64,000 nt of DNA. Origin: a virus (taxonomy: Duplodnaviria > Heunggongvirae > Uroviricota > Caudoviricetes). A program made the position numbers and the translations under genes. The notes under the pieces were generated by a model that saw only the letters and a program-made list of their open reading frames with translations, ran no database searches and was not told where the DNA came from. The DNA lies in the IMG/VR virus record IMGVR_UViG_3300033463_000001, positions 32,001 to 96,000 of that record; one strand, given 5' to 3'. Every line of letters begins with the position of its first letter. The stretch's first letter is position 1. Shown piece by piece: positions 16,253-40,938 of the stretch.

Positions 16253-16341
16253 TGCAAAGATAAGTAAAATTTTTCAAATATGCAAATTTTTCGTGAAAAA
16301 AATGTAAAATATCTGCATTTTGCTAACTTGACTTTGCAAAA
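16253..16341 (-). promoter_or_regulatory. early cassette head: promoter + 24-bp palindrome
   Basis: promoter consensus; palindrome 16318-16341, offset 65. Confidence 0.85.
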
Positions 16342-16342
16342 G

Positions 16343-16415
16343 TGCCCCCATCGGGACTCGAACCCGAATCTAAGACTTAGGAGGTCCTTATTCTATCCAA
16401 TTGAACTATGGGAAC
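16343..16415 (-). tRNA. tRNA-Arg(CCT)
   Basis: aggac-CT CCT AA-gtctt; isolated in early region. Confidence 0.9.
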
Positions 16416-16494
16416 GTGCCACCGGTTACTTCAGTACGAGAACCGCAAGGATGGCGATAAGTAATGCGTTTGTAAGTGACATGGCTCTGTGTGT

Positions 16495-16914
16495 TTATTG
16501 TTCAACATCCGGTACATCAATCTCCTGAATCTGGATGAGCGGACCTTGCTCCTTACAGGTGAGTGTTTCACCCTGATAGACATTCCACTTATCCTTTGGT
16601 CTCTGGCAGGCTTTGAAGTGAAGTATCTGGCGGTAGATTCCATAACTCATGGCGATGGCTCTACGCTGCGCCTCTACCTTACACGAGCCTCCGTTCCAAC
16701 TATAGGAAGCATGCGGTGGTAGGTCTGGCACGACAATCGGTGGTATCTTCTCCTCCAGGGTGTCTTGCAGTTGTCTGCAACGCTCTGGGTGTTCCAATGT
16801 CCATGCTGCGTGGTTCATTCCGCATTGACCGGCGAGGAATCTGCCCCAATCCTCAACAGCGTCTGCTATCAGGTTGAGTTGCTCCTCCGTACAGGTGATG
16901 GTGTATTTCTTCAT
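16495..16914 (-). CDS. hypothetical phage protein
   Basis: 139-aa ORF. Confidence 0.8.
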   Translation of the reverse strand: MKKYTITCTEEQLNLIADAVEDWGRFLAGQCGMNHAAWTLEHPERCRQLQDTLEEKIPPIVVPDLPPHASYSWNGGSCKVEAQRRAIAMSYGIYRQILHFKACQRPKDKWNVYQGETLTCKEQGPLIQIQEIDVPDVEQ

Positions 16915-16926
16915 AATCGCTGTGTG

Positions 16927-17130
16927 TTATTCGGTTATTACTTCGACATGTACAATCTGGAAGTTGTGTCCAAATGGATGTGCTGTCTTCTGTTCTTCGA
17001 TGTGATTGGCTGCGGCTTCCGGTGAAGCGTAGAACACATTACAGGTTGCCGTCTCTTGTGTGTTGTAGTCACCCATCAGTCCTCCCTCGTGCCATTCGTC
17101 GTAGTCGTATTGTATTTGATAGATTTTCAT
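16927..17130 (-). CDS. hypothetical protein
   Basis: operon packing; VFYASPEAA motif. Confidence 0.7.
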   Translation of the reverse strand: MKIYQIQYDYDEWHEGGLMGDYNTQETATCNVFYASPEAAANHIEEQKTAHPFGHNFQIVHVEVITE

Positions 17131-17174
17131 AGTGTTTGTACTTAATTTAGTACACCCGATTGCGGTGGAGAGGA

Positions 17175-18080
17175 TTAGTTCCTCTCCGTCACAATATATC
17201 GGAAGTGCGGTGTTACAAGAATGCTATCCTCTGCCGCCCAGATAAGTCTGGCGTAGATTCTGCGCTTACCACCATCGGTTATTGTCACCTCGAAGCCCTT
17301 GCCGGTGCACTCTGGGTTAGTCACCTGAATGGCTGATTGGTTGAGACCCATCTTCGAGCACTTGGTGGTGAGCGTCTTTATGGAAGTGTCCCAGTATCGT
17401 TCGAGTTCTTCCATCACGTGCTGGTAGATGTATTCTGTCCACGATGGGTAGCGCAGGCACTCATGTCCGAGCATTCGTCTCAACTCACCCTGCTCGTTCT
17501 CGATAACCTTGACGCGTTGGCGTGTTAGGATGTCGTTGTAGTTGTAAACCCCAATCTCTCTACGCTCTGCGGTTAACTCATCCAATTTCTTTTTCCAAGC
17601 CGCCTTGTGGTTCTGGTAGTGGAAGAATAGTTTGGTGTGATACTCAACCATCTTGTTGATGTACGCGTCATGGAACTGACCGAATGCTTGCCGGAATGCG
17701 TCTTCCAAATTATTGTCATATGCTTTAGTCGCAGCCTGCATTGCTCCCTGAACGCGAGCCTTCTCTTGTTCAAGCAATTCCTTCTCTCGCTGGAGATAGT
17801 TGATGTCACGCTGCGAGGACTGCTGCATTTCGATTGCGGAGTGCAGGCTGAACACCTTATCCATGTTCGTGGATGGGTATTTAAACCCAAGTTTGTCACA
17901 TAGAGTATAAGGGTTGGTATTGCCGATGATTTCCTCCGTCAAGTCCTCAAAGCCACACTTGTGGAGATAGGCGATACCCTTTGCGATTGTAGCGGCTCGC
18001 TTTTCCATCGTGGCACGTTTCTTCTCAATCGCTGTGTCCTTTGACTGAATGCGCTTATCCAATGTTTCAATGTTAACCAT
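17175..18080 (-). CDS. hypothetical coiled-coil phage protein
   Basis: 301-aa ORF, C-terminal ARLIWAAEDS...PHFRYIVT. Confidence 0.85.
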   Translation of the reverse strand: MVNIETLDKRIQSKDTAIEKKRATMEKRAATIAKGIAYLHKCGFEDLTEEIIGNTNPYTLCDKLGFKYPSTNMDKVFSLHSAIEMQQSSQRDINYLQREKELLEQEKARVQGAMQAATKAYDNNLEDAFRQAFGQFHDAYINKMVEYHTKLFFHYQNHKAAWKKKLDELTAERREIGVYNYNDILTRQRVKVIENEQGELRRMLGHECLRYPSWTEYIYQHVMEELERYWDTSIKTLTTKCSKMGLNQSAIQVTNPECTGKGFEVTITDGGKRRIYARLIWAAEDSILVTPHFRYIVTERN

Positions 18081-18091
18081 AGCCGTAGGGA

Positions 18092-18355
18092 TTATAGTTG
18101 GTTCAACGTTACTTTCTCAATCTTGCCATCGTAGATGTCCATCATGTCCGTTTCCAAGTGGAAACTATCACATTCGGTGTAGTACTCATACGTACCAAGT
18201 TCTTTGCGACCGATATAGTCGCATGTCTTGTGGAAGAGTGCGTCAAGGCATTCGCCGGCGAGTTTCTTGTTATCGAAGACACCAATCGTCTTGCTGGACG
18301 GAATACCATCGTTCTCGCGCTTTAGAAATGATACTACAAACATTACGTTTCTCAT
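18092..18355 (-). CDS. hypothetical protein
   Basis: start reassigned to MRNV after pseudoknot; IGVFDNKKLA motif. Confidence 0.75.
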   Translation of the reverse strand: MRNVMFVVSFLKRENDGIPSSKTIGVFDNKKLAGECLDALFHKTCDYIGRKELGTYEYYTECDSFHLETDMMDIYDGKIEKVTLNQL

Positions 18356-18407
18356 AATTAAAAATCGGTTGATATGCCGCCACCGAAAGGCTTTAAGTGA
18401 AATACGC

Positions 18408-18497
18408 TGCAAAGGTAAGTAAAAAAAATTGGAATATGCAAATTTTTCGAGGAAAAAGTGCAGAAAATCTCAATTTTGCCAACTCTACTTTACAATT
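18408..18497 (-). promoter_or_regulatory. early cassette head: promoter + palindrome
   Basis: offset 66. Confidence 0.85.
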
Positions 18498-18854
18498 ACA
18501 CCCCTATATGGTCAAGGAAATCATTGATTTCGTACAATGCCGCACCAAGTGTAGAGTGCGTGTGTATCTCCAGAGCAATCACGAAGTTTGCCTGCTCGTG
18601 GCTCATATCAAATGTTTCTATAAGACGATTATAAGTATCGTCGCGAAATTTTGCTAATTCTAACTCACTCATAGGTTGAAGTTATTGGCGGTTGTGTTTC
18701 TTGCGAGCCTTGCGTGCTTTTGCCCGCTTAAATTCTTCACTCATCGCTGTACGCGAACGCATTTTGTCTGGAGTGTTCACAACGAGTGTCTCACTCTTCT
18801 TCTCACCAACTCGATTGATGAGGTCATTGAAAGCATGTAATAACTGCATATCGT

Positions 18855-19034
18855 TTACTTTTGTTGGTTCTTAACTTGCTTGGGCTTGATAATTCTGTAT
18901 GCCCACGCATATCCGTTGTCTATCATAAAGCGAGCGTGCTCCAGAGCCTGACGCTTGCTTGGGAATGTCTCCGGTGCATAGACGTGACCCCACTGGTTAT
19001 TGAGGACTATTGTTGTCTCGATTGCTTTTGCCAT
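18855..19034 (-). CDS. hypothetical protein
   Basis: MAKAIET..., operon packing. Confidence 0.65.
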   Translation of the reverse strand: MAKAIETTIVLNNQWGHVYAPETFPSKRQALEHARFMIDNGYAWAYRIIKPKQVKNQQK

Positions 19035-19036
19035 AG

Positions 19037-19345
19037 TTATTCCTCCGATTTTAGAAGTGGAACAGGAAACCAATAATCATCACCGGTCATTCGCTCCAAG
19101 TCTGTTTTTGAAACATATCTGTGGTCGCGATAGTTATTACCACCGGTTCTGCACCAATAGAAGATTTCATCACCCTCTTCCGGCATGCGCTTGGAACACT
19201 TAATCCATACGTCACTACATTGACTGAATGCGAAGTCTGCCATGCGCAGAAGTGCGTCCATTAGATTGGTGTTATTATTGTGGCGGAAATCCCATGCGAT
19301 GAGTGCTGCATGTTGCACAAACACGTTGCGTTGTTCTTCTGTCAT
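19037..19345 (-). CDS. DUF551-like phage protein
   Basis: WIKCSKRMPEEG...YWFPVP. Confidence 0.6.
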   Translation of the reverse strand: MTEEQRNVFVQHAALIAWDFRHNNNTNLMDALLRMADFAFSQCSDVWIKCSKRMPEEGDEIFYWCRTGGNNYRDHRYVSKTDLERMTGDDYWFPVPLLKSEE

Positions 19346-19347
19346 AA

Positions 19348-19740
19348 TCAGTCCTCCAAAATATAGGTTAAACATTTCTTGATACCTACGAGCAATGCTG
19401 CGTCATGCTCTTTTTGCAATGTGAAACTATCTGCTACAAGGCGGACGTTTCCCTTTTCATCGGTGCGCCAAAGGCCAGGAATATATCCATGCGGCAGTTG
19501 AACCACGTTAATGGAAATATCGTACCCATGTACATCACGTAGCCACTTGTGCGCTACTGCGAGTGTGGGAGCGGAAACCTCATTAGTTGCATTCCAATTC
19601 GACATCAGTAGGCGATTGCAGAGTTCGTCATTACCATTGATACGACAAAAACTATACTGACACTCCCAATTAAAACCAGCCTGCTTTAGCATTTGAGCCA
19701 CTTCAAGGCTTACATACATTTCGTGAAAAATCTCTTTCAT
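19348..19740 (-). CDS. hypothetical phage protein
   Basis: YVSLEVAQMLKQAGF...SAPTLAVAHKWLR pattern. Confidence 0.8.
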   Translation of the reverse strand: MKEIFHEMYVSLEVAQMLKQAGFNWECQYSFCRINGNDELCNRLLMSNWNATNEVSAPTLAVAHKWLRDVHGYDISINVVQLPHGYIPGLWRTDEKGNVRLVADSFTLQKEHDAALLVGIKKCLTYILED

Positions 19741-19763
19741 AATCGTGTGTTGGTAAATTCGAC

Positions 19764-19852
19764 TGCAAAGATAAGTAAAATTTTTGAATTATACAAATTT
19801 TTCACGAAAAATCGTGCAAAAAAGTTTATTTTGCAAAGTCCACTTTACAAAA
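19764..19852 (-). promoter_or_regulatory. early cassette head: promoter + palindrome
   Basis: offset 65. Confidence 0.85.
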
Positions 19853-20177
19853 CGTACCCATTTGTGTCGTGATATGCGAGTTTCTCACCAGCTGCGATGG
19901 TGCGAGCATAGAGACGTTGGTAGTCCAGAACACACTCAATAGCGGGGATAGAAGCGTCCTTAACACCGGTGAGTAGTAACTTCACAGAGTTCTCTTCATA
20001 GGTGACACCGGTCAGTTCAACGGCACAACCGGCATGCAGGACAATCATCGGCTCAATGGCGAGTTGCTTGATGTTGTTCTTCCGGAGTACCTGAACCAAG
20101 TGCTCTGTATAAATCTGTAACGGACGAAGAGACGCTTGCTCTATCTCGCGTTGGTATGCTTGTTCTTGTTTCGTCAT
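19845..20177 (-). CDS. hypothetical protein
   Basis: ATGA overlap. Confidence 0.75.
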   Translation of the reverse strand: MTKQEQAYQREIEQASLRPLQIYTEHLVQVLRKNNIKQLAIEPMIVLHAGCAVELTGVTYEENSVKLLLTGVKDASIPAIECVLDYQRLYARTIAAGEKLAYHDTNGYVL

Positions 20178-20437
20178 AGTGTTTCTTCAAGTTTTTTAAT
20201 CTCATCTGTCAACTTATTGGCAATGTCACGAATACCGGTGATGCGCCGGTTGGCTGCGGCTAAATCGTACAACTCATCCACGATGGACTTCACCGGCGCG
20301 AACTGCCTATCCCTCTTGGACTTATTATATCGCTTACCATCAGCGTTCCGATAGCACCGGCGCGTTGGGTCTCCAAACTCTTCAAAGTAGAGACATGTTT
20401 GACCCTTGTATGGTATTCTGTTTCTATTGCCCTGCAT
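20174..20437 (-). CDS. hypothetical protein
   Basis: start reassigned to MQGN. Confidence 0.65.
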   Translation of the reverse strand: MQGNRNRIPYKGQTCLYFEEFGDPTRRCYRNADGKRYNKSKRDRQFAPVKSIVDELYDLAAANRRITGIRDIANKLTDEIKKLEETL

Positions 20438-20609
20438 GTACACCTCCGATGTAATTACGTTCTGTCTTGCGTACGTCACTATACTTGGCTTGTGCTGCTG
20501 TCTGGATAACGCGCGGCTTTTCGCCGGTATCGGCAACGTGCCATTTCTTTGTCTCGTCTGTGACACCATCGTTCATTGCGTCACAAATAATCTGTCCTAA
20601 CAATCCCAT
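20424..20609 (-). CDS. hypothetical protein
   Basis: follows TATATTAG motif. Confidence 0.6.
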   Translation of the reverse strand: MGLLGQIICDAMNDGVTDETKKWHVADTGEKPRVIQTAAQAKYSDVRKTERNYIGGVHAGQ

Positions 20610-20663
20610 ATCTGTGAGTGTTTTAGTTATTACTAATATAGGGTTTTACCCCCTCTTTTTCAA

Positions 20664-21110
20664 CTAATAGAGGAAGTAAAACGCACCTGCCGCAATACCT
20701 TTTCCGATATTGGTATAGTTCTCGTCCATGAGTTGCTCTTCGGTGAGTATTTGCTCGGTATCGTCAATCTCGTTAATGACGAAGAATGTGTTGTCCACCG
20801 AGAAGTAGGTCATTACCTTGTCGGAGCGCATGCAACCGCCTACGATAAGGAAGAACTCATGGTTCTCATCATCACCGGATAAGATGTCTTTGAGAAGTTG
20901 AATACTATCCACCTTGAATGGGGTCTTCACTTCCTCAATCTCAAATGACTGAACACACCAGCCGTACTTGTTGGAGAGGTAGTCTGCTCCGTCCATCTGC
21001 ACGTCCTCAATGCGTGCGTTATCATCTACCGGCATGATTGCGCTCTCCGGCAGGTTTGCATTCTCACCATCAGTGTCCCATACGATGTTGACTAATTTGA
21101 AAAGTTTCAT
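20664..21110 (-). CDS. hypothetical acidic protein
   Basis: NIVWDTDGE...LP...DYLSNKYGWCV; preceded by pseudoknot. Confidence 0.8.
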   Translation of the reverse strand: MKLFKLVNIVWDTDGENANLPESAIMPVDDNARIEDVQMDGADYLSNKYGWCVQSFEIEEVKTPFKVDSIQLLKDILSGDDENHEFFLIVGGCMRSDKVMTYFSVDNTFFVINEIDDTEQILTEEQLMDENYTNIGKGIAAGAFYFLY

Positions 21111-21153
21111 AATTAAAAATCGGTTTGCCTATACACCGAAAGGTTTTAGAAAA

Positions 21154-21357
21154 TTACTTAAAACTCATCTTTGCCACACTATCCAGCGCGTTCAGGACGT
21201 TCATGTGGTAGTCGTAGTCTGTGATGTAAAACTTGTGTATTGGAAGTTTGCTTGTGGAAGTCTTGTAAACCTCACACAATACTCGGTCTTCCTCAACGTA
21301 CTTCAACTCGATATACACGACCTTGCGTGTCTTATCGTAAGCGTGTATGCGTGCCAT
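21154..21357 (-). CDS. hypothetical protein
   Basis: operon packing. Confidence 0.7.
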   Translation of the reverse strand: MARIHAYDKTRKVVYIELKYVEEDRVLCEVYKTSTSKLPIHKFYITDYDYHMNVLNALDSVAKMSFK

Positions 21358-21361
21358 ATCC

Positions 21362-21781
21362 TTATTTGTTATTCTCGGATAAACGTGTATAGATGTCAGT
21401 CATAATGCGCTCATACGCAAAGAGGTCAGCGAACGCATGTGGGTGAGCCATAGCACTTTCAAAGATTTCGTCTTTGAGACCCATGAACATTTTCTCGATG
21501 TTATCCACCTCTTGCGGATATTCGAAATTGTTTCCGCCAAGCACATAGCGCGTGCCATTGCACAAGTAGCGGTTATGGAAATCAACTGCGGTAGAGATAC
21601 CATAGCGGTCAACGAGAGCCTTGAAGTCATCTTTGTCGGTGATGTCCAAGACTTGTTCTCCGTCCTGCGCACCTCTATCCAACTCCCAGCGGTTGATGAT
21701 TGCTTTCTTATCTGCACCAAAGAATTGGTTTCCGAAGAAGATACGCTTGAAGTCTTCCATAGTTATTTTTACGTCTTTCAT
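21362..21781 (-). CDS. hypothetical protein
   Basis: start reassigned to MKDV after pseudoknot. Confidence 0.8.
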   Translation of the reverse strand: MKDVKITMEDFKRIFFGNQFFGADKKAIINRWELDRGAQDGEQVLDITDKDDFKALVDRYGISTAVDFHNRYLCNGTRYVLGGNNFEYPQEVDNIEKMFMGLKDEIFESAMAHPHAFADLFAYERIMTDIYTRLSENNK

Positions 21782-21837
21782 AACACAAATCCATTGCCTA
21801 TACATGGAGAGGTTTTTAGTGGGTTTTCAAATTCGGC

Positions 21838-21926
21838 TGCAAAGGTAAGTAAAATTTTTGAATTATGCAAATTTTTTGAAAGAAAAATGCAAAATATCTT
21901 CATTTTGTAAACTCTACTTTGCAAAA
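21838..21926 (-). promoter_or_regulatory. early cassette head: promoter + palindrome
   Basis: offset 65. Confidence 0.85.
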
Positions 21927-21935
21927 TAGGGGCGT

Positions 21936-22157
21936 TTATGACCTACACACCTCCAGATTCACCTCATACTGCTCCGGTGATGATGTAGCCCATTGACGGA
22001 CTGCAATCTCTTGTTTCCTTGCGCTGGCTACGTATTTGAACCGGTTTGCGTCCTCTATTTTGTCAACGGCATGGATGTGTCCATGATGGTCGATTGAGAC
22101 GTATTTCTTGGTCTGGTCAGCACCGGTGAGTGACAGAACATACGATAGTGTCTTCAT
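21936..22157 (-). CDS. hypothetical protein
   Basis: ORF within cassette. Confidence 0.7.
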   Translation of the reverse strand: MKTLSYVLSLTGADQTKKYVSIDHHGHIHAVDKIEDANRFKYVASARKQEIAVRQWATSSPEQYEVNLEVCRS

Positions 22158-22271
22158 AAGCGTTGTGTGTTTTCTGTTCGCGAACGGAGAACGTTTTATT
22201 GTTATTACCTTATTTTCAGTTAGTCATACAATCTGGATTACATATCCAGACCATCCAATTTCAAATCTGAC

Positions 22272-22349
22272 TACAAAGATAAGTAAAATTTTTGAATTAT
22301 GCAAATCTTTTGGCGGAAAAATTTATTTTGCTAAGTGGACTTTACAAAA
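22272..22349 (-). promoter_or_regulatory. early cassette head: promoter + palindrome (one helical turn closer)
   Basis: offset 54. Confidence 0.8.
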
Positions 22350-22415
22350 AAAGCACCTACTCTCACGAGCCGGTGCAATTAAATTTTATTAAACTTTAAA
22401 TATGTAAAATAACAT

Positions 22416-22922
22416 TTACCGCTGCTCAACGAGCATACGGATTTTTCTTGTGTACGATTTATCGGCAGCGTACGGCAGTTCCTCCAAGAACTTGATGTAG
22501 TCTCCGCCGGTGTACTTATACTGCACTTTGTTCTTATACCCTCGCAGACAATCAACCCAGTTACTGAATGAATAATAGGTCTTATTGTACGAATCATATA
22601 ACCCAAGCATGTTGTTCTTCTGTTTGAACACAGAACTTGTGAAGTTACCACTTTCAAGGCGAGCCTGTGCATAGACAATCTCTGGGTGTTCAATATCCAA
22701 CTGCTTGCAGACATAGTGGAAGTTGTCCTTGTTCAACGCAAGCGTGTCCAAGATTGTGTCGGGGTAAGCCGGCGGCACGATGTAGATTGTTGTCGTGTCT
22801 GTGGTCTGTTGAACCTCCCAAGCCGGTCGGGTGGTCATGGAATAAGCAGAAATAAATGTTACTGCCATTGCTACGAGTAGAATTACCTCTACCACGCGAA
22901 ATGTGAATTTCTCTTTTGCCAT
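22416..22922 (-). CDS. glucosaminidase-domain (GH73-like) peptidoglycan hydrolase with N-terminal TM
   Basis: AQARLESG, KNNMLGL, YAADKSY motifs. Confidence 0.85.
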   Translation of the reverse strand: MAKEKFTFRVVEVILLVAMAVTFISAYSMTTRPAWEVQQTTDTTTIYIVPPAYPDTILDTLALNKDNFHYVCKQLDIEHPEIVYAQARLESGNFTSSVFKQKNNMLGLYDSYNKTYYSFSNWVDCLRGYKNKVQYKYTGGDYIKFLEELPYAADKSYTRKIRMLVEQR

Positions 22923-25096: not shown

Positions 25097-25149
25097 AGTC
25101 AAAAATCGGTTGACCTATACCCCGAAAGGTTCTAATTGTTAAAACTGGG

Positions 25150-25238
25150 TGCAAAGGTAAGTAAAATTTCTGACATTTCCAAATTTTTTGAAAGAAAAAT
25201 GTCAAAAATCTCGTTTTTGTAAACTCTACTTTGCAAAA
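25150..25238 (-). promoter_or_regulatory. early cassette head: promoter + palindrome
   Basis: offset 65. Confidence 0.85.
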
Positions 25239-26229: not shown

Positions 26230-26318
26230 TGCAAAGGTAAGTAAAAATTTTGAATTATGCAAGTTTTTTGAGAAAAAAATGCGAAAAAAGTGCATTTTGC
26301 AAAGTTGACTTAGCAAAA
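26230..26318 (-). promoter_or_regulatory. early cassette head: promoter + palindrome
   Basis: offset 65. Confidence 0.85.
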
Positions 26319-27092: not shown

Positions 27093-27146
27093 AGTCAAAA
27101 ATCGGTTGAGTAGCCACCACCGAAAGGCTTTACTTGTGAAACTCGG

Positions 27147-27235
27147 TACAAAGGTAAGTAAAAATTTTGGAATATGCAAATTTTTTTAAAGAAAAATACT
27201 AAAAAACTTCATTTTGCCAAGTGGACTTTGCAAAA
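27147..27235 (-). promoter_or_regulatory. early cassette head: promoter + palindrome
   Basis: offset 65. Confidence 0.85.
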
Positions 27236-28789: not shown

Positions 28790-28878
28790 TGCAAAGGTAT
28801 GTAAAATTTTTGAATTATGCAAACTTTTCGATGAAAAAATGTAAAATTTCTTAATTTTGCAAACTCAACTTTACAAAA
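28790..28878 (-). promoter_or_regulatory. early cassette head: promoter + palindrome
   Basis: offset 65. Confidence 0.85.
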
Positions 28879-30300: not shown

Positions 30301-30361
30301 AATTTCAGTCGGTTTGAGTACCACCACCGAAAGGCTCTAAAGGGTTGTTTTCAAAAATCTG

Positions 30362-30450
30362 TGCAAAGATAAGTAAAATTTTTGAAATATGCAAATATTT
30401 TGGAAAAAATCGTGCAAAAAAGTTTATTTTGCTAAGTTCACTTTGCAAAA
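30362..30450 (-). promoter_or_regulatory. early cassette head: promoter + palindrome
   Basis: offset 65. Confidence 0.85.
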
Positions 30451-32242: not shown

Positions 32243-32331
32243 CGCAAAGGTATGTAAAATTTTTGACATACGCAAATTTTTGGCTAAAAATCGTTCGAAA
32301 AACTTCAAATTGCAAAGTCCAGTTAGCAAAA
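32243..32331 (-). promoter_or_regulatory. early cassette head: promoter + palindrome
   Basis: offset 65. Confidence 0.82.
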
Positions 32332-34057: not shown

Positions 34058-34146
34058 TGCAAAGGTAAGTAAAAATTTTGATATATGCAAATTTTCGAGC
34101 AGAAAAATGCAAAAAATCTCATTTTTGCAATCTCTACTTTGCAATT
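34058..34146 (-). promoter_or_regulatory. early cassette head: promoter + palindrome
   Basis: offset 65. Confidence 0.82.
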
Positions 34147-34376: not shown

Positions 34377-34706
34377 CTACATGAACAAACCCAAATACGG
34401 AGCGAAGTGCTCGCTGATGAGAGAGTTCAGTTTTGCTTCTTGCTTAATCTTCTCTGCGTAAGCCTTGCGGTCTTCCTCGCCCATGTCCATGTACTCCTGC
34501 AAGCGTCTGTTCCAATCTTCGAATTGGTTCAGTTTGTCTCGCATTTCCATTTTCTCCTGCTCGGCTTTCATAGCACGCGCGGAGAGTTCCTTGTTGCGCT
34601 GACGAAGACGTTCGATTTCCTCTTCCAATCGTTCCGTCTTCGCCTTGTACTGCGCAGCGAGTTTGTTACGCATGTTTGCCTCTATGGCTTTGCGTGTTTG
34701 TTTCAT
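34377..34706 (-). CDS. coiled-coil protein
   Basis: heptad-rich charged helix. Confidence 0.8.
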   Translation of the reverse strand: MKQTRKAIEANMRNKLAAQYKAKTERLEEEIERLRQRNKELSARAMKAEQEKMEMRDKLNQFEDWNRRLQEYMDMGEEDRKAYAEKIKQEAKLNSLISEHFAPYLGLFM

Positions 34707-34709
34707 AAC

Positions 34710-34910
34710 TTATGCGGTTACAATTTCATCGTCCGGCTGGTTGCTCCAATGGCAATCTCCGTTGTTATCAATGACGCGAATAGCGTCTTCCTCTGGGTTG
34801 CGCGCTGCGGCTTTTGCTTGTGCGTACTTGATAGCCGCAGCCTTGACCTTATAGACGTGGTTGATGAACTTACAATTCATTTCCACATAGAATTTTGTCG
34901 GTTTATCCAT
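34710..34910 (-). CDS. hypothetical protein
   Basis: operon packing. Confidence 0.7.
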   Translation of the reverse strand: MDKPTKFYVEMNCKFINHVYKVKAAAIKYAQAKAAARNPEEDAIRVIDNNGDCHWSNQPDDEIVTA

Positions 34911-34923
34911 AGTGGCTGGAGTG

Positions 34924-35172
34924 TTAAAGGTTAATAATGTCGTTAATCAGACAAGTGTACGTGCTTTCGCTAATTTCATCAAACCCATAAGGCTCAAAAT
35001 CATTAACATATTCTTCTTTCCCATAAGGACAAGCGTGAACTCCGTCTTTGTCGGCATACTGCGCATAGTATCCGTCATAACTTTCTCCGTTCCAATTTCC
35101 GTCAATAGGAACATTACCACCGAAATCTACGCGACCTGCTTTTGCTTTCTCAATCAATTCTTGTTTACTCAT
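34924..35172 (-). CDS. hypothetical acidic protein
   Basis: start reassigned to MSKQ downstream of promoter. Confidence 0.75.
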   Translation of the reverse strand: MSKQELIEKAKAGRVDFGGNVPIDGNWNGESYDGYYAQYADKDGVHACPYGKEEYVNDFEPYGFDEISESTYTCLINDIINL

Positions 35173-35233
35173 AAGAATAAGTGTTTTAAGGGTTATGCAT
35201 TGTTGCCGACAATGGTTCGTTGTTAAATTCGGC

Positions 35234-35322
35234 TGCAAAGGTAAGTAAAATTTTTGAATTATGCAAATATTTTGGTGAAAAAATGCAAAATTTCTTACTT
35301 TTGCAAAGTCAAGATAGCAAAA
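35234..35322 (-). promoter_or_regulatory. early cassette head: promoter + palindrome
   Basis: offset 65. Confidence 0.85.
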
Positions 35323-35356
35323 TGGGGTGTTTTTGTATATGCACCCCATTCGCTTA

Positions 35357-35842
35357 TCACATGTGCAGACGCGTCTCCGAGATATAGAAAGTAGTGTGTT
35401 TCTCGTTATAGCGACCATTCAAATAGCACTCCCAATGGTTGAGCAAGCCGGTCTGCATATCGGTTGTCTTGCAGATAGTATAATCCTCATCATCTTCCTT
35501 AACGTCACACTCCCAAGTCTCTCCGCTTGCCAGCATTTCATTAACCTTGAACGTTAGGAACTCATAGGCTTTGTCCTTTGAGAGGAAGACACCAAGTGGT
35601 TGTGTGCTGGTCTCATCATCGACTGCGAAGTCCATGATTACCGCATAAGCCTTTGGGAATATATTCTTGTCGAACTCATCGTTAGCCGGAGTTTCGATAA
35701 GTGCCTGGTGTACCACCGCGCTGGACTGACCGGTCTCTTTCATAACCTGCTCGGCTATGTTGAGTGCTTCGACATGATTGGACGCATTAACCGGAAAGCG
35801 GTGTGTGAACTGATATGTTGTTTCTACCAAAAAAGTCTTCAT
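35357..35842 (-). CDS. hypothetical two-domain protein
   Basis: VNASNHVEA and LGVFLSKDKA motifs; start MKTF. Confidence 0.78.
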   Translation of the reverse strand: MKTFLVETTYQFTHRFPVNASNHVEALNIAEQVMKETGQSSAVVHQALIETPANDEFDKNIFPKAYAVIMDFAVDDETSTQPLGVFLSKDKAYEFLTFKVNEMLASGETWECDVKEDDEDYTICKTTDMQTGLLNHWECYLNGRYNEKHTTFYISETRLHM

Positions 35843-35903
35843 AGGTCTTGAATATACTAAATTAAGTACAATAGGGTTCGTTGTTTGCGAGAGAGTGGGC
35901 GGT

Positions 35904-36179
35904 TTATACCAACCCACGTCTCATTAAGTCCATGCGCTTGGCGAGCCGTTCGCTTTGAAACCATTGTGGCTTACCCTCTTGGAGCGCACGATATTTGTCT
36001 GGGTACTGACGTGCCACCTCACGCTCGCACTTATGGGAGCAGCAGTAATCATCTTCACGTCTTTTCCGGAAGTGACGCTCGCATATCGGACAGATACATA
36101 CGGAGTCCACCGGACGCGCCACGTTATTGTTGATTACTCGGATTGCGAATGGAAGTTGTTCTTGCGACTTGTTAGCCAT
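35904..36179 (-). CDS. small Zn-finger protein
   Basis: CPIC...YCCSHKC. Confidence 0.72.
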   Translation of the reverse strand: MANKSQEQLPFAIRVINNNVARPVDSVCICPICERHFRKRREDDYCCSHKCEREVARQYPDKYRALQEGKPQWFQSERLAKRMDLMRRGLV

Positions 36180-36271
36180 AGTTGTGTACGATTGCCTTGT
36201 ATCATCGTGAGGTTGTTAGGGGTTGAGAAAAAAGGTGCACTTAATACGTGTCGTGCGCAACCTCCGGCGGC

Positions 36272-36613
36272 TTATGCCGTGTGCCGCCAATCGACATTGC
36301 GTGTGCCCTCGATGTCGAAGTCATTGACCCACTCGCAACCATTTTGATACCACTTACCGCTCTTGCGTGTGATACCTGCGCCCATAGCGTTCAGGCGGCT
36401 CTTGGTGGTGTTCGTTCCGCACGTCTCGCCCTCGCGTCTGCGTCCAGCGTCCGAAAACTCATAGGTCTTCGTCTTGCGGTCATAGGTGGCTATTAGGTGT
36501 CCGTGCAGGTACACACACGTTGTGTCTCCCTTGGTTGCCACTTGGGTGTTACCCTGCGAAAAGTTGCGTCCACTCTCGATAGCGTTCAGCATTGCAATTT
36601 CGATTTTCTTCAT
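36272..36613 (-). CDS. conserved phage protein
   Basis: MKKIE..M..AI...VYLHGHLIA...TTKSRLNA, a pattern seen in myovirus early genes. Confidence 0.8.
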   Translation of the reverse strand: MKKIEIAMLNAIESGRNFSQGNTQVATKGDTTCVYLHGHLIATYDRKTKTYEFSDAGRRREGETCGTNTTKSRLNAMGAGITRKSGKWYQNGCEWVNDFDIEGTRNVDWRHTA

Positions 36614-36685
36614 AGCGCGTTCATCAATTACCTATACATTGAGAGGTCTTAAAAGGGTTAATTGCCGTTGTTTCTCAAAAGCGAG

Positions 36686-36774
36686 TGCAAAGGTAAGTAA
36701 AATTTTTGACATACGCAAGTTTTTTGCCAAAATTCGTTCAAATTTCTTACTTTTGCAAAGTCGAGTTTACAAAA
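36686..36774 (-). promoter_or_regulatory. early cassette head: promoter + palindrome
   Basis: offset 65. Confidence 0.85.
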
Positions 36775-36790
36775 TAGGGGTGTTTTGTAC

Positions 36791-37036
36791 CTAAATGCCG
36801 CATTCGTAGCGTGCGAGCGTCCGCATTCCGTCTTCCAGCGTAACGCATTTGGAGAGGTCTGGACTATACTCGCTATCGTCTGGGTCTCCGAGTGCCCCCA
36901 TAGCCGCACGGAAAATGTCCCTTATAGCAGTCTCCGATAGGTCATTTTGGTCATAGCGTTCCACCTCATCAAGGAAGTACTCAAACGACTGCTGCATGTC
37001 CACGCGTGTAATATGCACCAATTCCATTCTATCCAT
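36791..37036 (-). CDS. hypothetical acidic protein
   Basis: start reassigned to MDRM. Confidence 0.7.
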   Translation of the reverse strand: MDRMELVHITRVDMQQSFEYFLDEVERYDQNDLSETAIRDIFRAAMGALGDPDDSEYSPDLSKCVTLEDGMRTLARYECGI

Positions 37037-37123
37037 GTTTATTTGCGTTTTAAGCGACTTTCGTTGTTTGGCTGATAAGTTGGCTTGCTGGGACTTAATC
37101 GTCCCACACAAGCCGTTTTGTGG

Positions 37124-37516
37124 TTAGCGGGCTGACATTTTAGATTTGGTCAGGTAGATACCGCATGGGGTGTCTTCCGTTATCTCGTCATAGTCCAGCA
37201 GTTTGGGTTCGCCCTCGTTGAGGAATGCAATGGTGTCATCCACCATTTCTTCCAGCGTGTTGAACTCATACTCATACTGCTTGACCTCTGCCTGCAACTC
37301 AATGATACGCGTCTTATAGTCTCCCTCGCGCTTGTCCGCCTGAACGTCCCTTATGAAGTCGGCGAGCGGCACGATACAGAATGTGAAGTCGGTGCGTACA
37401 TACGGAGCGTGTTCTATATCGTCCGTGAACGTGTGCAGAATGTGCATGTCCTTTGGTGCACCCTCTACTTGCTCAATGGAATAGAGGTCTCTCTCTAAAA
37501 AGTCTTGTTTGTTCAT
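37124..37516 (-). CDS. hypothetical acidic protein
   Basis: operon packing. Confidence 0.8.
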   Translation of the reverse strand: MNKQDFLERDLYSIEQVEGAPKDMHILHTFTDDIEHAPYVRTDFTFCIVPLADFIRDVQADKREGDYKTRIIELQAEVKQYEYEFNTLEEMVDDTIAFLNEGEPKLLDYDEITEDTPCGIYLTKSKMSAR

Positions 37517-37517
37517 A

Positions 37518-37775
37518 TCACTTCTTATCGTAAAAGTCGTTGGTGCTCGGTTTTACTACTACGGTAAACAAAATACCTGTTCCCAGCGCGAGGACAAGAG
37601 CGGTGTCCGCCTTGCGGTTCTTTCCGTGTTCCACGTACGCCACATATCTTTGCAGGGTCTCTTTGTTTCGGTTCATCAAGCGTTTCCAAACCTTTAGAAG
37701 TTGCTTTTCGTGAATGGGGTGGTTCTCCTGCTCGTAAGCGGCAATCAGTTGCTCAATCAATGCTTTCTTTGTCAT
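37518..37775 (-). CDS. hypothetical protein
   Basis: first gene after promoter. Confidence 0.7.
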   Translation of the reverse strand: MTKKALIEQLIAAYEQENHPIHEKQLLKVWKRLMNRNKETLQRYVAYVEHGKNRKADTALVLALGTGILFTVVVKPSTNDFYDKK

Positions 37776-37919
37776 AGACGCAATGTTTTGAATGGTTAGT
37801 ACTCTGTCCGAGAAATGAGTTAGGGGTTTGAAACTTATTCCAGCGGGTGTTGTTATCCTTATCCTACTTTGCGGTGCTCAACTTTTCGCACACTTTCAAC
37901 GCTCATTCTCGAAATTGGG

Positions 37920-38008
37920 TGCAAAGGTAAGTAAAAAAATTGACATATGCAAATTTTTCAGCAAAAATCGTTCGAAAAACCTCAAATTGCAAAGTCCACT
38001 TGACAAAA
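37920..38008 (-). promoter_or_regulatory. early cassette head: promoter + palindrome
   Basis: offset 65. Confidence 0.82.
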
Positions 38009-38077
38009 TGGGCACTTTTGTGGCAATAGGCGAGCGGTTTTTTGTCTCCGCTCACCTATCACAACCCCTTGCGGTGT

Positions 38078-38272
38078 TTAGTCTTCAACCTCAACTGCGT
38101 CAGGCGCACTATCTTCTTGCAGTCCGTCCAGCAGTTCCTTGATGTAGCACTCGCGCGCTGATTCCGCCTGCGCCAAATCAATTGCCTCTCTCTCGCTCTC
38201 CGCCTGCACGTTGATAGAGAGGTTCGTGTGGAAGTAAAGGGTGACGTTATACGTCTTCTTTTGCTTTGTCAT
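38078..38272 (-). CDS. DpnD/PcfM-like small protein
   Basis: YNVTL...INVQAESEREAIDLA. Confidence 0.6.
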   Translation of the reverse strand: MTKQKKTYNVTLYFHTNLSINVQAESEREAIDLAQAESARECYIKELLDGLQEDSAPDAVEVED

Positions 38273-38287
38273 AGTCCAAAAAAGATT

Positions 38288-38491
38288 TTAGTTATCGGTT
38301 TCAAATGTGCCGCAGGGACATTCAAGGTCTTCCTCAATATCTCCCACGTTGTCCTGAATGATGTAGTTCATGTAATCAGCACGAACCTTATCAACTGCCA
38401 ACTCTGCCGCCTTATCGGCTGCGCTCTCGTTGTCCTCAACAACAACGCGCGTTGTAATGACCAAAGTCACAAGTAATGCTTTCTTTGCCAT
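38288..38491 (-). CDS. hypothetical protein
   Basis: operon packing. Confidence 0.7.
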   Translation of the reverse strand: MAKKALLVTLVITTRVVVEDNESAADKAAELAVDKVRADYMNYIIQDNVGDIEEDLECPCGTFETDN

Positions 38492-38503
38492 AGCCGTATA
38501 GAA

Positions 38504-38980
38504 TTAAAATTTAGTCCACCAAAATTCCGTACCCATGAGGGTTTCCGTATAGTCCTTGCACCACTCGTCAAAGCGACCTTGATTCTCCAGAATGTCAAGG
38601 AAGAGCATAGGAGACCAGTCCAGCCGCTTGTTCATAAAATCGTGGCTCGCGCTTACCCAATGCGTTTTCTCCTTTGCGTCATAGTGAATATAGAGGAAAC
38701 TATCAGCAGGGACTACAACGCGTTTCTCTGCGTCAAAGAATGGGAGCAGAATGGGTCGGCACAAATGGTTCGCGTCCTTTGGGTTCGGCTCAAACTCTGG
38801 ATAGTGTTTCTCAAACCACTCATAGACGAGGTGCTGGCTTTCTATCTTGCTGACGAAGTTCTCGTCATGCCGTTTGGCTGCCTGCGACACGTACGTGTGT
38901 GTGTTCAGGCGTTCCTTGATACTTTCTACTGCGCGCAATGCTCTCAAATGCTCGCTCGGAAGACATAAATGGATAGTCAT
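38504..38980 (-). CDS. hypothetical protein
   Basis: first gene after promoter. Confidence 0.8.
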   Translation of the reverse strand: MTIHLCLPSEHLRALRAVESIKERLNTHTYVSQAAKRHDENFVSKIESQHLVYEWFEKHYPEFEPNPKDANHLCRPILLPFFDAEKRVVVPADSFLYIHYDAKEKTHWVSASHDFMNKRLDWSPMLFLDILENQGRFDEWCKDYTETLMGTEFWWTKF

Positions 38981-39004
38981 AATCGTAGGGTGTTAAAATT
39001 CGGC

Positions 39005-39093
39005 TGCAAAGGTATGTATTTTTTCTGACATACGCAAATTTTTAGCCGAAAAAGTGTTAAAAAACTCAATTTTGCAAACTCTACTTTGCAAAT
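39005..39093 (-). promoter_or_regulatory. early cassette head: promoter + palindrome
   Basis: offset 65. Confidence 0.85.
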
Positions 39094-39402
39094 GCCTCTA
39101 TCGTGCTGGGGTGCTGCACAATGCTCCAACTGCGAGGAATGTGCATACAATTGCCAATAAAATTTTGATAGCCATAGTGTCAAAACATTTCGTTATAGTC
39201 AACTCGTTCGTCCTCTGGGTCGCGTCCGAACTGCCGGTGGTCAAAGCGACTTGATGTACCTCCCCACCACCATTCTTCGGTCTCTCTACCCTCATAGTGT
39301 GTTGTTACCATAGTTGTACGTGTTTATACTAAATTAAGTACATTTGTGGTATGGGTGGGAACACGAACCCAACTTGTGAGTTCGCATTCCCTTTCTCAAC
39401 CC

Positions 39403-39960
39403 TTATTGAGCGACCTGCAACTTGCGTGCGCCCTGCTCAATGTATTGCAGACTTTCGAACTTGTAGTCGCGCACCACTACTTCGTCTTCTCCACTCAACC
39501 CTGCTGCGAGTTGCTTTGCCGATTGAGCCTTTGCAGGAATGTACGATAGTATATCGTCAAGGGTCTTTTGGTCGGTTACGACCTTTCCGTCCAACTCATA
39601 TAGGACATTCGCATGTGTGTTAGCACGCATGGTGGTGCGCAGGTACTTCTGCTCCGGGTCCTTGTCGGCACACAAAATAAGGTTATTGATTACCCATGTG
39701 CGCCCTGACGGCTTTTCCACCTGATATTCGGTGTCCATGCCTGCGCGCTCCAAGCGGTTGCGGACCGTGTTGCCAAAGTTGTAACATAGTGCCACATTGA
39801 CCAAGCGCGTGACCTTGCGGACGCGACCGATATAGGGGTTCGCGGTCTTGCGCATGTTGGGTTCGGTTGATGTAATGATAGTTACACCAAAGGTCGCAGG
39901 GGTTAAGGACTTAACGAAGTTGATTACTCGTTCTTGTTGTGCAGCACTCATAGTTGCCAT
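39403..39960 (-). CDS. conserved phage protein
   Basis: PNMRKTANPYIGRVRKV pattern; preceded by pseudoknot. Confidence 0.82.
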   Translation of the reverse strand: MATMSAAQQERVINFVKSLTPATFGVTIITSTEPNMRKTANPYIGRVRKVTRLVNVALCYNFGNTVRNRLERAGMDTEYQVEKPSGRTWVINNLILCADKDPEQKYLRTTMRANTHANVLYELDGKVVTDQKTLDDILSYIPAKAQSAKQLAAGLSGEDEVVVRDYKFESLQYIEQGARKLQVAQ

Positions 39961-40048
39961 AGTCTTTGCGAGCGGTCAGGCACTCGCGCCATTAAGTAAA
40001 ACAAAGGTTGTTCAGTTCTCGCAGGGACACTCCCTAACTGAAATCGAG

Positions 40049-40137
40049 TGCAAAGGTAAGTAAAAAAATTGACATATGCAAATTTTTCAGCAAAAATCGT
40101 TCGAAAAAGTGAATTTTGCTAACTCTACTTTGCAAAA
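40049..40137 (-). promoter_or_regulatory. early cassette head: promoter + palindrome
   Basis: offset 65. Confidence 0.85.
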
Positions 40138-40155
40138 TGGGGTCTTTTGTGCCGG

Positions 40156-40410
40156 TTAGTCCGTCCTATTGACTATCTCTAACTCCCAAGAGATTTTGTC
40201 CACATGGTCGCTTATTGCATGCATGATACGCACACATTCGGCTTGCACATCAGCACCCAGTCCGTCAGCGGCAAATACCGCTCCGTCTTCACACCAATTG
40301 ACAAACGGCTCGCCACCATTCCGGCACACCACGTTATTCTCAATCATGTTGATTAGTTGATTAGCAACGCACACACACGCAATTGCCTTGTAATCGGTCA
40401 TAGTTTCCAT
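40156..40410 (-). CDS. hypothetical protein
   Basis: start reassigned to METM. Confidence 0.7.
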   Translation of the reverse strand: METMTDYKAIACVCVANQLINMIENNVVCRNGGEPFVNWCEDGAVFAADGLGADVQAECVRIMHAISDHVDKISWELEIVNRTD

Positions 40411-40439
40411 TTGAACCACGTTTTTAGTTTGAAATCGGC

Positions 40440-40473
40440 TGCAAAGATACAAAAAAAATTTGATATATGCAAG
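40440..40473 (-). promoter_or_regulatory. Bacteroidota-type promoter, leftward member of divergent pair
   Basis: CTTG...TATCTTTG. Confidence 0.75.
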
Positions 40474-40585
40474 TTTTTGAGTAAAAAAATTTTATGTTGT
40501 AAAACATGTTTTTTCGTAAGTCGTTGTGTTTCAGCCGGTTACGTTGTTTGGCGCACAAGAAAAAAATGAAAAAATGCAGACGGGT

Positions 40586-40619
40586 ATTGCATATATGAAA
40601 AAAATTGCTTACCTTTGCA
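40586..40619 (+). promoter_or_regulatory. Bacteroidota-type promoter, rightward member of divergent pair
   Basis: ATTGCA...TACCTTTGCA. Confidence 0.75.
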
Positions 40620-40678
40620 GGCGAAATCGGTAACGAGACCGATGATGACCCTATTATTCATTATAAACGCATACGCAC

Positions 40679-40810
40679 ATGAAAGCGAAAGACATGGCAA
40701 AAATTCTCATGGAGCACCCAGATGCAGAGGTGGCTACCTACGGCATTCGTGGCAACGTGGAAAGCCACAATTTAATTTTCAACGGAGTGAATTGGTGGAT
40801 AGGCGCATAG
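40679..40810 (+). CDS. small hypothetical protein (43 aa)
   Basis: manual translation MKAKDMAKILMEHPDAEV..., below ORF-track cutoff. Confidence 0.6.
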   Translation: MKAKDMAKILMEHPDAEVATYGIRGNVESHNLIFNGVNWWIGA

Positions 40811-40849
40811 CCGGAGCGACCCAGAGACAAAATAGGGCAATAGACCCTG

Positions 40850-40938
40850 TTTTGTCAACTGGACTTTGCAAAATGAACTTTTTCAGCACTTTTTTGCGTG
40901 AAAATTTGTATATTTGAAAAAAAATACTTACCTTTGCA
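40850..40938 (+). promoter_or_regulatory. early cassette head, rightward: palindrome + promoter
   Basis: same 65-bp offset in inverted orientation. Confidence 0.85.

Follow-up and report, generated by a model that had tools for sequence, protein, structure and literature searches.

The stretch analysed here, which we call the window, spans 64,000 nucleotides of a 327,393-bp phage genome and contains 18 promoter modules within a 24.5-kb block of about 54 small genes, most of them orphans. In every module a 24-bp palindrome with two-fold symmetry (consensus TTTTGCAAAGTnnACTTTGCAAAA, half-sites arranged 11-2-11) precedes a Bacteroidota promoter close to consensus, TTTG-N20-TAnnTTTG. Module 1 (16253..16341, minus strand) is made up of the palindrome (16318-16341), a 31-nt phased spacer, the -33 element TTTG and the -7 element TAtcTTTGCA; tRNA-Arg(CCT) (16342-16415) adjoins its palindrome.

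Phased promoter modules in the phage

An earlier note on this DNA had described 18 palindrome-bearing promoters at a fixed distance. Recomputing the offset from the start of the TGCAAAG box to the palindrome edge gave 65 bp for module 1 and for the following minus-strand modules, listed with their palindromes in brackets: module 3 at 19764..19852 (19829-19852), 4 at 21838..21926 (21903-21926), 6 at 25150..25238 (25215-25238), 7 at 26230..26318 (26295-26318; its -33 element is CTTG), 8 at 27147..27235 (27212-27235), 9 at 28790..28878 (28855-28878), 10 at 30362..30450 (30427-30450), 11 at 32243..32331 (32308-32331), 12 at 34058..34146 (34123-34146), 13 at 35234..35322 (35299-35322), 14 at 36686..36774 (36751-36774), 15 at 37920..38008 (37985-38008), 16 at 39005..39093 (39070-39093) and 17, the final leftward module, at 40049..40137 (40114-40137). 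The same 65 bp separate 40873 from 40938 in the inverted module 18 (40850..40938, plus strand; palindrome 40850-40873), whose rightward promoter forms the divergent boundary of the block. The offset is 66 bp in module 2 (18408..18497, minus strand; palindrome 18474-18497, with 5 mismatches) and 54 bp in module 5 (22272..22349, minus strand; palindrome 22326-22349), in exact agreement with the note. The extra base of module 2 sits in the spacer between -33 and -7 (21 rather than 20 nt) and leaves the gap between palindrome and -33 at 31 nt, while module 5 lacks one 11-nt T-tract unit, shortening its gap to 20 nt. Measured to the -33 element, the gap is thus 31 nt in 17 of the 18 copies and 20 nt in one, and with the TTTG set at -36..-33 the palindrome is centred at -79.5. 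In modules 7, 10 and 13 a GC hairpin stands immediately before the palindrome.

All the coordinates of the note were correct. A pattern search with up to three mismatches returned 14 copies against none in 100 shuffles, and with up to five mismatches 18 copies; in the entire phage genome there are likewise 18, every one inside positions 16318-40873 of the window. The module, about 110 bp long, can be aligned throughout and gap-free across the phage copies. The A/T tracts reported for the spacer are real and phased, with T at +7..+11 and +18..+22 and A at +27..+31. These three tracts are 10 bp apart; conservation of the spacer is limited to them and to its length, the bases in between being variable.

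Promoters lacking the palindrome exist as well, as the note had stated; it counted five, and we find three strong ones in the window (3354, 13428 and 14586). Genome-wide there are about 15 such host-type promoters, with the same core and a CGTCCAAAGGA-type box before -33; some host-type promoters of the phage are therefore outside the reach of the palindrome. The box of this other promoter class, CGTCCAAAGGATTTG, showed no clear enrichment in the host family (19 matches versus 9 for the control, none exact).

The sequence of the palindrome was then weighed as a protein site or as a hairpin. The two arms match each other less well than shuffled arm pairs (155 versus 163.9 +/- 3.6, P=0.002); one perfect half is present in 11 of the 18 copies and two perfect halves in none, and the mean RNA MFE of the copies is -3.6 kcal/mol as opposed to -9.3 for a perfect copy. 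The half-site logos are alike and the half-sites vary independently, with no compensatory changes between the arms among the 18 copies. The T run of the palindrome is part of the stem, and a generic terminator scan found no excess (18 versus 17.8 expected). A reading as intrinsic terminator or RNA/DNA hairpin was rejected, given arms that pair worse than shuffled partners, the weak mean MFE and the lack of compensatory change. Independent variation without covariation makes the palindrome look like a protein site rather than a hairpin, and, judged by its sequence, like the site of a dimer with independently evolving half-sites.

The palindrome in related phages, mobile elements and Bacteroidales

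The palindrome is common to the phage, two related phage contigs, small mobile elements and many rumen and gut Bacteroidales genomes. One of the related contigs (G071:C21) carries 11 sites, which are all those of G071; the nine promoter modules read on it, some with sites of more than three mismatches, all have a 42-nt gap, and their spacer sequence is unconserved. This contig shares two proteins with the phage block, at 27-37% identity. In the other, a phage fragment (G001), the gaps are 20 and 31 nt. An integrase island with HicAB also uses the module. Scans of IMG/VR for further relatives gave mostly chance single matches among the matches listed, and BLAST against cultured phages found no near match to the block, crAss-like phages matching the core promoter only.

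About 75 of 120 genome matches were to Bacteroidales, and the family sample held 26 palindrome sites versus 3 for the control. A site with up to three mismatches occurs in only 18 of the 61 sampled family genomes, and most host genomes have 0-5 strong sites, indicating that the regulon is small or patchy or that the sites are weak; one genome, G072, has 8 sites on 6 contigs versus none for the control. Gaps before the -33 box in Bacteroidales are 10-12, 20-25, 31-33, 41-42 or 62 nt, and other copies overlap -33 or lie just past the -7 box. Promoters of phages, mobile elements and Bacteroidales chromosomes were sorted by hand, on the basis of regex matches, into distance classes and 32 families; across these, gaps fall only in bands spaced by about 10 bp (R=0.80 at 10-10.5 bp, P<5e-5), and this periodicity holds for the host promoters alone.

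Several host placements recur between genomes. The palindrome stands 62 nt before -33 at rpsL in two genomes and 47 nt before the -7 box at nuoA in three of four genomes (48 nt in the fourth, L078), with diverged flanks. It also lies upstream of SusC-like genes and FopS sRNAs; pckA is divergent from FopS and both are targets. Several lone palindromes face two divergent promoters, each gap inside a phased band. At a gene for an EF-G paralog, in five genomes, the palindrome is 6-9 nt past the -7 box, and at a gltD/NfnB-like gene it is just past that box, in operator position. Cur-like sites adjoin the palindrome in FopS and other promoters. The FopS paper makes no mention of an upstream palindrome, and a search of the literature for the motif and for promoters of Bacteroidota phages turned up no description of it.

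Search for the binding factor and known systems

The earlier note had seen no obvious regulator gene, and our searches agree: a six-frame search of the phage for HTH_3, HTH_Crp_2, Rex and ScfR domains gave no match, nor did the 54 ORFs of the block match any DNA-binding Pfam family. A Pfam scan of 72 proteins flanking host sites revealed no recurrent transcription factor gene, so that an autoregulated regulator adjoining these sites was dismissed. AraR and NrtR were set aside on their differing operators. The Rex operator has the consensus TTGTGAA-N4-TTCACAA; Rex was rejected on half-site spacing and on gene content, PF06971 being found in G009 only and absent from G006, G008, G010 and the phage, i.e. 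from three of four host genomes. ATPases of the AAA_14/DUF4143 type were discarded because the palindrome accompanies one subfamily only (0 of 6 other copies checked) and DUF4143 counts as a nuclease fold.

Several likenesses to CRP promoters of E. coli are apparent: the two-fold symmetric site of 22-24 bp, upstream positions whole helical turns apart (here about -60, -70, -80, -90 and -110), a -33-overlapping position near -40, operator positions past -7 and the use of one site for divergent promoters. Sites for E. coli CRP are centred at -61.5, -71.5, -82.5 and -92.5 (class I) or at -41.5 (class II), besides operator positions. The palindrome sequence, however, is unrelated to TGTGA-N6-TCACA and its host phylum has a different sigma-A promoter. 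Matches to the Crp-family domain PF13545 number three in G006, one each in G008 and G010 and none in G072 or the phage; in two of four host genomes just one such gene was found, the MAGs being incomplete. The Crp-like Cur of Bacteroides recognizes TATGTTnTAnAACATA, wwwTATGTTnTAnAACATAwww (PMC3878776). Cur/BT4338 was rejected as binder since this motif differs, co-occurring beside the palindrome without matching it.

The palindrome half-site ACTTTGCAAA is almost identical to the boxes of two regulators, RamB and PrpR. The mycobacterial PrpR box is TTTGCAAA, and pck is a RamB target. Like the RamB regulon, which is central carbon metabolism, the palindrome has pckA among its targets. The RamB box of Corynebacterium glutamicum is AA/GAACTTTGCAAA (PMC4448153). 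RamB boxes are single 13-mers, not 11-2-11 palindromes, and PF09856, the C-terminal domain of the ScfR family, was found neither in the phage nor in four host genomes, so that a RamB/PrpR-type regulator was rejected despite its matching half-site.

Among phages, the site for p4 of phi29 lies upstream of the late A3 promoter, centred at about -82. It resembles the present arrangement, predicted here from sequence, in being an inverted repeat about 80 bp upstream of a phage promoter, with bent DNA and helical-face dependence. The protein p4 is phage-encoded and serves few promoters, whereas here there are 18 promoters, a site common to host chromosomes and no phage regulator found. Early promoters of T4 are strong host-sigma promoters with upstream A/T-rich elements. 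The present phage, large and T4-like, recalls them in the many strong host-type promoters gathered in its block, each with a few small orphan genes, and in their phased upstream A/T tracts; T4 early promoters, in contrast, are not known to have a discrete palindromic factor site.

A proposed composite promoter and its rival explanations

We lean, at slightly better than even, towards the view that the phage has co-opted the site of a host factor; its composite promoters would tie the gene block to a host regulator. The unit would comprise a near-consensus Bacteroidota sigma-A core (TTTG at -33, TAnnTTTG at -7), a 31-nt spacer whose three A/T tracts 10 bp apart predict intrinsically bent DNA, and a 24-bp symmetric site near -80, presumably bound by a dimeric sequence-specific DNA-binding protein. 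Independent half-sites, the centre at -79.5 and phased gaps in 32 families all bear out the earlier suggestion of a dimeric factor some 80 bp upstream on one helix face. The use of the site by host chromosomal genes, small integrated elements and distant phages makes a host-encoded factor most likely, and the -33-overlapping and post-(-7) positions at host genes sit well with the note's mention of a possibly host-derived factor. The host supplying it would belong to the Bacteroidales of rumen or gut, and probably to the Paludibacteraceae or a group close to them. In its genomes the site seems to occupy the three places that are classic for a dual regulator of the CRP type: on one face of the upstream DNA (centred near -60, -70, -80, -90 and -110), as at rpsL, nuoA, pckA, FopS sRNAs and SusC-like genes; overlapping -33, centred near -40; and as operator just past -7, as at the EF-G paralog and gltD/NfnB-like genes. 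In the phage, the factor on bent upstream DNA may contact RNA polymerase in a class I-like manner, perhaps at its alpha-CTD, which would bind expression of the 24.5-kb block to the regulatory state of the host. The analysis shows the sites, how they are placed and conserved, and that a hairpin is not under selection; protein binding, host encoding of the factor, activation and the early nature of the genes are what we infer from these patterns.

Constant spacing could instead reflect ancestry alone, one cassette having been copied 18 times and the palindrome being functionless now or a structural hairpin, terminator or cruciform. The full-length alignment of the module would fit such copying, and in about 4-5 modules the GC hairpin abuts the first TTTT of the palindrome, which might then double as a terminator tail. 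Against this, non-tract spacer positions have diverged while the length was kept, a distant relative holds the palindrome at another but equally constant gap of 42 nt with unrelated spacer sequence, host sites are phased as well, and the arm-pairing and terminator results above speak against a hairpin or terminator. This explanation was already disfavoured and we regard it as very improbable.

Two further explanations accept a protein site. Because the core promoters are already near consensus, an activator may be unneeded, and the site could serve repression or shut-off, a host or phage dimer at -80 looping or wrapping DNA via the bent spacer and silencing strong promoters that should fire unaided, for example if the state of the host is unsuitable or early transcription has to end. 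The operator positions at the host EF-G-paralog and gltD-like genes imply that the factor can repress, and the imperfection of every copy, with one weak half, suits tunable occupancy. A repressor acting from -60 to -110 on a single face of the helix would be unusual, though, and the phased upstream geometry at rpsL, nuoA and pckA together with shared divergent promoters is a hallmark of upstream activators, so we hold silencing to be rather unlikely. Unlikely too, in our estimate a shade more so, is a binder encoded by the phage, from the block or packaged and injected, acting on its own 18 sites, with host and mobile-element sites belonging to homologous regulators on mobile DNA. Eighteen sites in 24.5 kb are far denser than in any host genome, most block proteins are orphans that could conceal a DNA-binding fold outside Pfam recognition, and phi29 p4, binding about 82 bp upstream, is a precedent. 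Yet sites precede the core host genes nuoA, rpsL, pckA and the EF-G paralog and are conserved across genera, the module is in use in tiny elements, such as the HicAB cassette, that have no obvious regulator themselves, and the phage has no HTH_3 or Crp-type domain.

Returning to the co-opted host site, a broader proposal, which we offer tentatively and at less than even odds, is that Bacteroidales of rumen and gut have an undescribed dual regulator, CRP-like and with the palindrome as its site, to which a family of giant phages, and small mobile elements too, have connected the genes they express first. This regulator would be placed upstream of the ribosomal str operon (rpsL), nuo, pckA and the FopS sRNAs, but on the start sites of the EF-G paralog and the gltD/NfnB-like gene. 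To our knowledge, little of the transcription control of Bacteroidales has been mapped apart from sugar-specific systems and Cur, and we know of almost nothing on how giant phages of Bacteroidales start infection. The palindrome offers a handle on the host regulator, as pull-down bait and regulon seed, and the 18 near-identical natural constructs, with one copy a turn shorter and a relative with a spacer one turn longer, are a ready-made test of helical-face dependence. For an uncultured giant phage of gut or rumen, 327 kb in size, the palindrome further suggests a probable host lineage. Under the candidate regulator, an alternative elongation factor appears to be tied to ribosomal, respiratory and gluconeogenic genes. 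If this holds, infection would respond to the growth or energy state of the host, and the numerous copies in the phage could, besides, draw the factor off host genes by titration.

Copy number and anatomy of the promoter modules

Scanning the phage with the TTTTGCAAAGTnnACTTTGCAAAA pattern, we found 14 matches at no more than three mismatches, with none expected from 100 shuffles; at up to five mismatches the palindrome occurs in 18 copies, and the phage genome has none beyond these. The observation of 18 copies is genuine and greatly exceeds chance. On recheck the coordinates and the offsets between palindrome and CTTTGCA box reported in the earlier note (65 bp in 16 copies, 66 bp at 18408 and 54 bp at 22272) were all correct. 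Seventeen of the 18 modules are oriented leftward, while the last (40850-40938) faces rightward, closing the block. The gap between the palindrome and the -33 TTTG is 31 nt in 17 of 18 copies; the single added base of the 18408 copy sits within the -33/-7 spacer, and the 22326 copy, with a gap of 20 nt, is missing exactly one T-tract unit.

Gap-free alignment of the 16 standard modules revealed a weakly conserved CAAAAG..CC.A flank 5' of the palindrome, the strongly conserved 24-bp palindrome, a T tract at +7 to +11 past the palindrome (T invariant at +9 and +10), a second T tract at +18 to +22 (T invariant at +19 and +20), a conserved A tract at +27 to +31, a strongly conserved -33 box (TTTGCATA), a conserved 20-nt inter-box spacer with TTTTAC at its end, a strongly conserved -7 box (TTAcCTTTGCA) and a conserved start region (CgAATTTgAAAA). 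The bases separating the A/T tracts vary freely in this alignment, indicating selection on length and tract phase rather than on sequence. Phased A-tracts bend DNA, and the three tracts at 10-bp intervals should produce a planar bend.

The possibility that the palindrome acts as a hairpin was rejected, as the differences between its arms are not compensatory. Both arms have the same logo (T3, T4, G5, A8 and T11 invariant; positions 6, 7 and 10 variable) and agree at 155 of 198 positions, compared with 163.9 ± 3.6 upon random re-pairing (lower-tail P = 0.002). One perfect half is present in 11 of 18 copies and two perfect halves in none; no phage copy is fully symmetric, though per-position frequencies predict only about one. 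RNA folding energies average -3.6 kcal/mol versus -9.3 for a perfect copy, and a generic terminator scan gave no excess. A G+C hairpin adjoins the palindrome's first TTTT in about four to five modules (22326, 26295, 30427, 35299). Judged by their sequence patterns, the arms look like independent protein half-sites.

The 5'UTRs downstream of the modules carry, directly 5' of the ATG, a conserved element of ~35 nt on the minus strand (~16205-16250, 18360-18405, 21790-21835, 25100-25147, 27100-27144, 30310-30359 and 36640-36682). Base changes in its two interleaved stems are compensatory (CCT/AGG with TCAAT/ATTGA; GCC/GGC with TCGGT/ACCGA), pointing to an H-type pseudoknot. In module 1 the 3' end of tRNA-Arg(CCT) lies 1 nt from the palindrome; this gene (16342-16415, minus strand) stands by itself among the promoters, well away from the main tRNA island at 4956-10003; the window has 18 tRNA genes in all. 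In the 0.7 kb between the last leftward and the rightward palindrome (40138-40849), the only ORFs are weak leftward ones (40156-40452, 40542-40700), which are doubtful, as neither promoter class was found upstream of these two.

The palindrome in bacteria and related phages

A prokaryote scan with one genome per species returned at least 120 loci. About 75 among the 120 matches listed are rumen or gut Bacteroidales MAGs, the Bacteroidales among them comprising Paludibacteraceae, "uncultured Bacteroidales", Prevotella, Phocaeicola and Bacteroidaceae. Whole-genome counts at up to three mismatches, with the reversed pattern as control, gave 14 sites versus 1 in five Bacteroidales genomes, 26 sites (in 18 genomes) versus 3 among 61 genomes of one family, and 8 sites on six contigs versus 0 in one Paludibacteraceae MAG (G072). 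The recurrent neighbours of these host sites, confirmed by Pfam and Rfam, were nuoA, an EF-G paralog, a Fer4_20/Pyr_redox_2 protein (gltD/NfnB-like), SusC-like receptors, a PepSY-like lipoprotein, pckA, UxaC, GpsA, rpsL and FopS sRNAs.

The footprints stand out clearly. In four genomes that belong to different genera, the nuoA palindrome lies 47 nt 5' of the -7 box (48 in locus L078) and is followed by a T tract, the flanks having diverged. At the EF-G paralog in five genomes it lies 6-9 nt past the -7 box, on the start site, and a gltD-like gene (L112) shows the same arrangement. The -33 TTTG of some host promoters is part of the proximal half-site itself. Several single palindromes are flanked by divergent promoter pairs with phased gaps (31+13, 32+23, 21+42 and 12+42). 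The FopS sRNA genes of Paludibacteraceae (Rfam RF04319; L180 3384-3560, L181 3421-3692, L191, L194 and L312) have promoters with the palindrome 42 nt 5' of -33, paired with a Cur-like site (TATGTT..AACATA); at L312 the palindrome is shared with a divergent pckA promoter, 21 nt 5' of its -33 box.

Two further gene groups carry similar sites. An AAA_14 + DUF4143 ATPase subfamily from at least six phyla has a similar 11-2-11 palindrome upstream, whose proximal half forms the -33/-35 box (L064, L066, L069, L093, L101, L102, L105, L114, L121, L130, L150, L151, L155, L158 and L178); AAA_14 genes number 11-16 per ~2.2-Mb Bacteroidales genome, and the majority of checked copies lack the palindrome. 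In Firmicutes and Petrotoga, a 67-aa XRE-type HTH gene has the look-alike palindrome TTTTGCAAAGTACACTTGACAAAA upstream (L075, L077, L084, L152 and L168), which is probably the operator of that gene itself, a pairing that implies that small HTH proteins are able to read such sites. These loci have no lineage relation to the phage.

Among the relatives, a 41.6-kb contig binned in a horse-faeces MAG (G071:C21; loci L120/L143) carries 11 palindromes at up to three mismatches, all those of its genome, and encodes homologues of two block proteins (27-37% identity). The gap is 42 nt in 9 of 9 promoter modules found there, counting some sites beyond three mismatches, and beyond its length the spacer is not conserved in sequence. 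On a 118-kb phage fragment (G001, L009), three palindromes lie at the cut end, their gaps being 20 and 31 nt. Small viral contigs and a 38-kb provirus carry single modules, the gap there being 31 or 41 nt. Across these relatives the palindrome thus persists through deep divergence while the gap shifts by whole turns only. Among mobile elements, an integrase island encoding HicA/HicB and DUF5053 proteins also uses the module.

Helical phasing of the sites

Over 32 promoter families the gaps are only 10-12, 20-25, 31-33 and 41-42 nt, giving a mean resultant length of 0.80 at a period of 10-10.5 bp that was reached by 0 of 20,000 uniform simulations, a P value that is approximate, since family grouping and a 1-nt regex offset were chosen manually. 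The phasing holds equally for the 24 host-only families. At rpsL, in two genomes, the palindrome is 62 nt 5' of -33, a later find that is in phase and stands outside the test. With TTTG set at -36 to -33, upstream sites centre near -60, -70, -80, -90 and -110, those overlapping -33 have their centres near -40, and operator sites cover roughly +2 to +30. CRP-type dual regulators have a positional repertoire of phased upstream, -33-overlapping and operator sites, and the palindrome positions match it. The model of the earlier note, a dimeric factor acting from one face of the helix, is supported by this comparative evidence.

Promoter classes and candidate binders

The window covers bases 32001-96000 of one contig of 327,393 bp, whose ends overlap and whose G+C content is 42%. 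The contig comes from an uncultured giant phage, and a sequence search of cultured phages gave no close match. The promoters in the window follow the Bacteroidota consensus TTTG-N19-21-TAnnTTTG, reportedly described by Bayley and colleagues in 2000 in a paper that PMC11697453 cites; the predicted start sites are 5-7 nt past TAnnTTTG. The core promoter alone (TTTGCATA...TTTTACTTACCTTTGCA, 21837-21878) is 83-92% identical to intergenic DNA of a gut microvirus and of two crAss-like phages, cr111_1 and cr126_1 (MT774387.1 86863-86901, MT774391.1 51449-51484), and the palindrome is absent at these copies. The core is a generic strong Bacteroidales phage promoter. About 15 further promoters across the genome have the module-type core and no palindrome (3354, 13428 and 14586 on the minus strand of the window; about 12 outside it, including G000:C1 25118, 116848, 148581, 169478, 237865, 255783, 263197, 276013, 290376 and 302555), and carry CGTCCAAAGGA, also written (A/T)TCGTCCAAAGGA, immediately 5' of the -33 TTTG. 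Unlike the palindrome, which is enriched in the presumed host family, this box is not clearly enriched there (19 versus 9 in the control; no exact matches), so a phage factor may read it.

The block contains ~54 leftward ORFs of 50-330 aa. Only 8 of them have Pfam matches, among them glucosaminidase, Kyano_Gp96 and DUF551, and none of these is a DNA-binding domain. This composition, together with host-type promoters, would fit an early host-takeover block.

Which protein reads the palindrome was considered among known regulators. The motif of Cur, a Crp-like protein of Bacteroides, differs from it (PMC3878776), although Cur-like sites adjoin the palindrome in FopS and other promoters; AraR operators differ as well (PMC4666351), and three of four host genomes lack a Rex gene. 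The half-site does match AA/GAACTTTGCAAA, the Corynebacterium RamB box (PMC4448153), but the ScfR domain of a RamB-type binder is absent from the phage and from the four host genomes searched. No DNA-binding family recurring beside the host sites was found. A six-frame search of the phage gave no match to HTH_3, HTH_Crp_2, Rex, ScfR or AAA_14; the binder is possibly a phage protein of unrecognised fold, perhaps injected. Among the origins offered by the earlier note (encoded elsewhere, injected or host-derived), the comparative evidence now leans towards a host-derived factor. We infer that the site activates rather than silences, that the factor contacts RNA polymerase and that the block is timed early; the phage would have co-opted activator-type sites. 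In the literature searched, no description of the motif or its arrangement was found, and there is a fair chance that the palindrome will reveal an undescribed Bacteroidales regulon.
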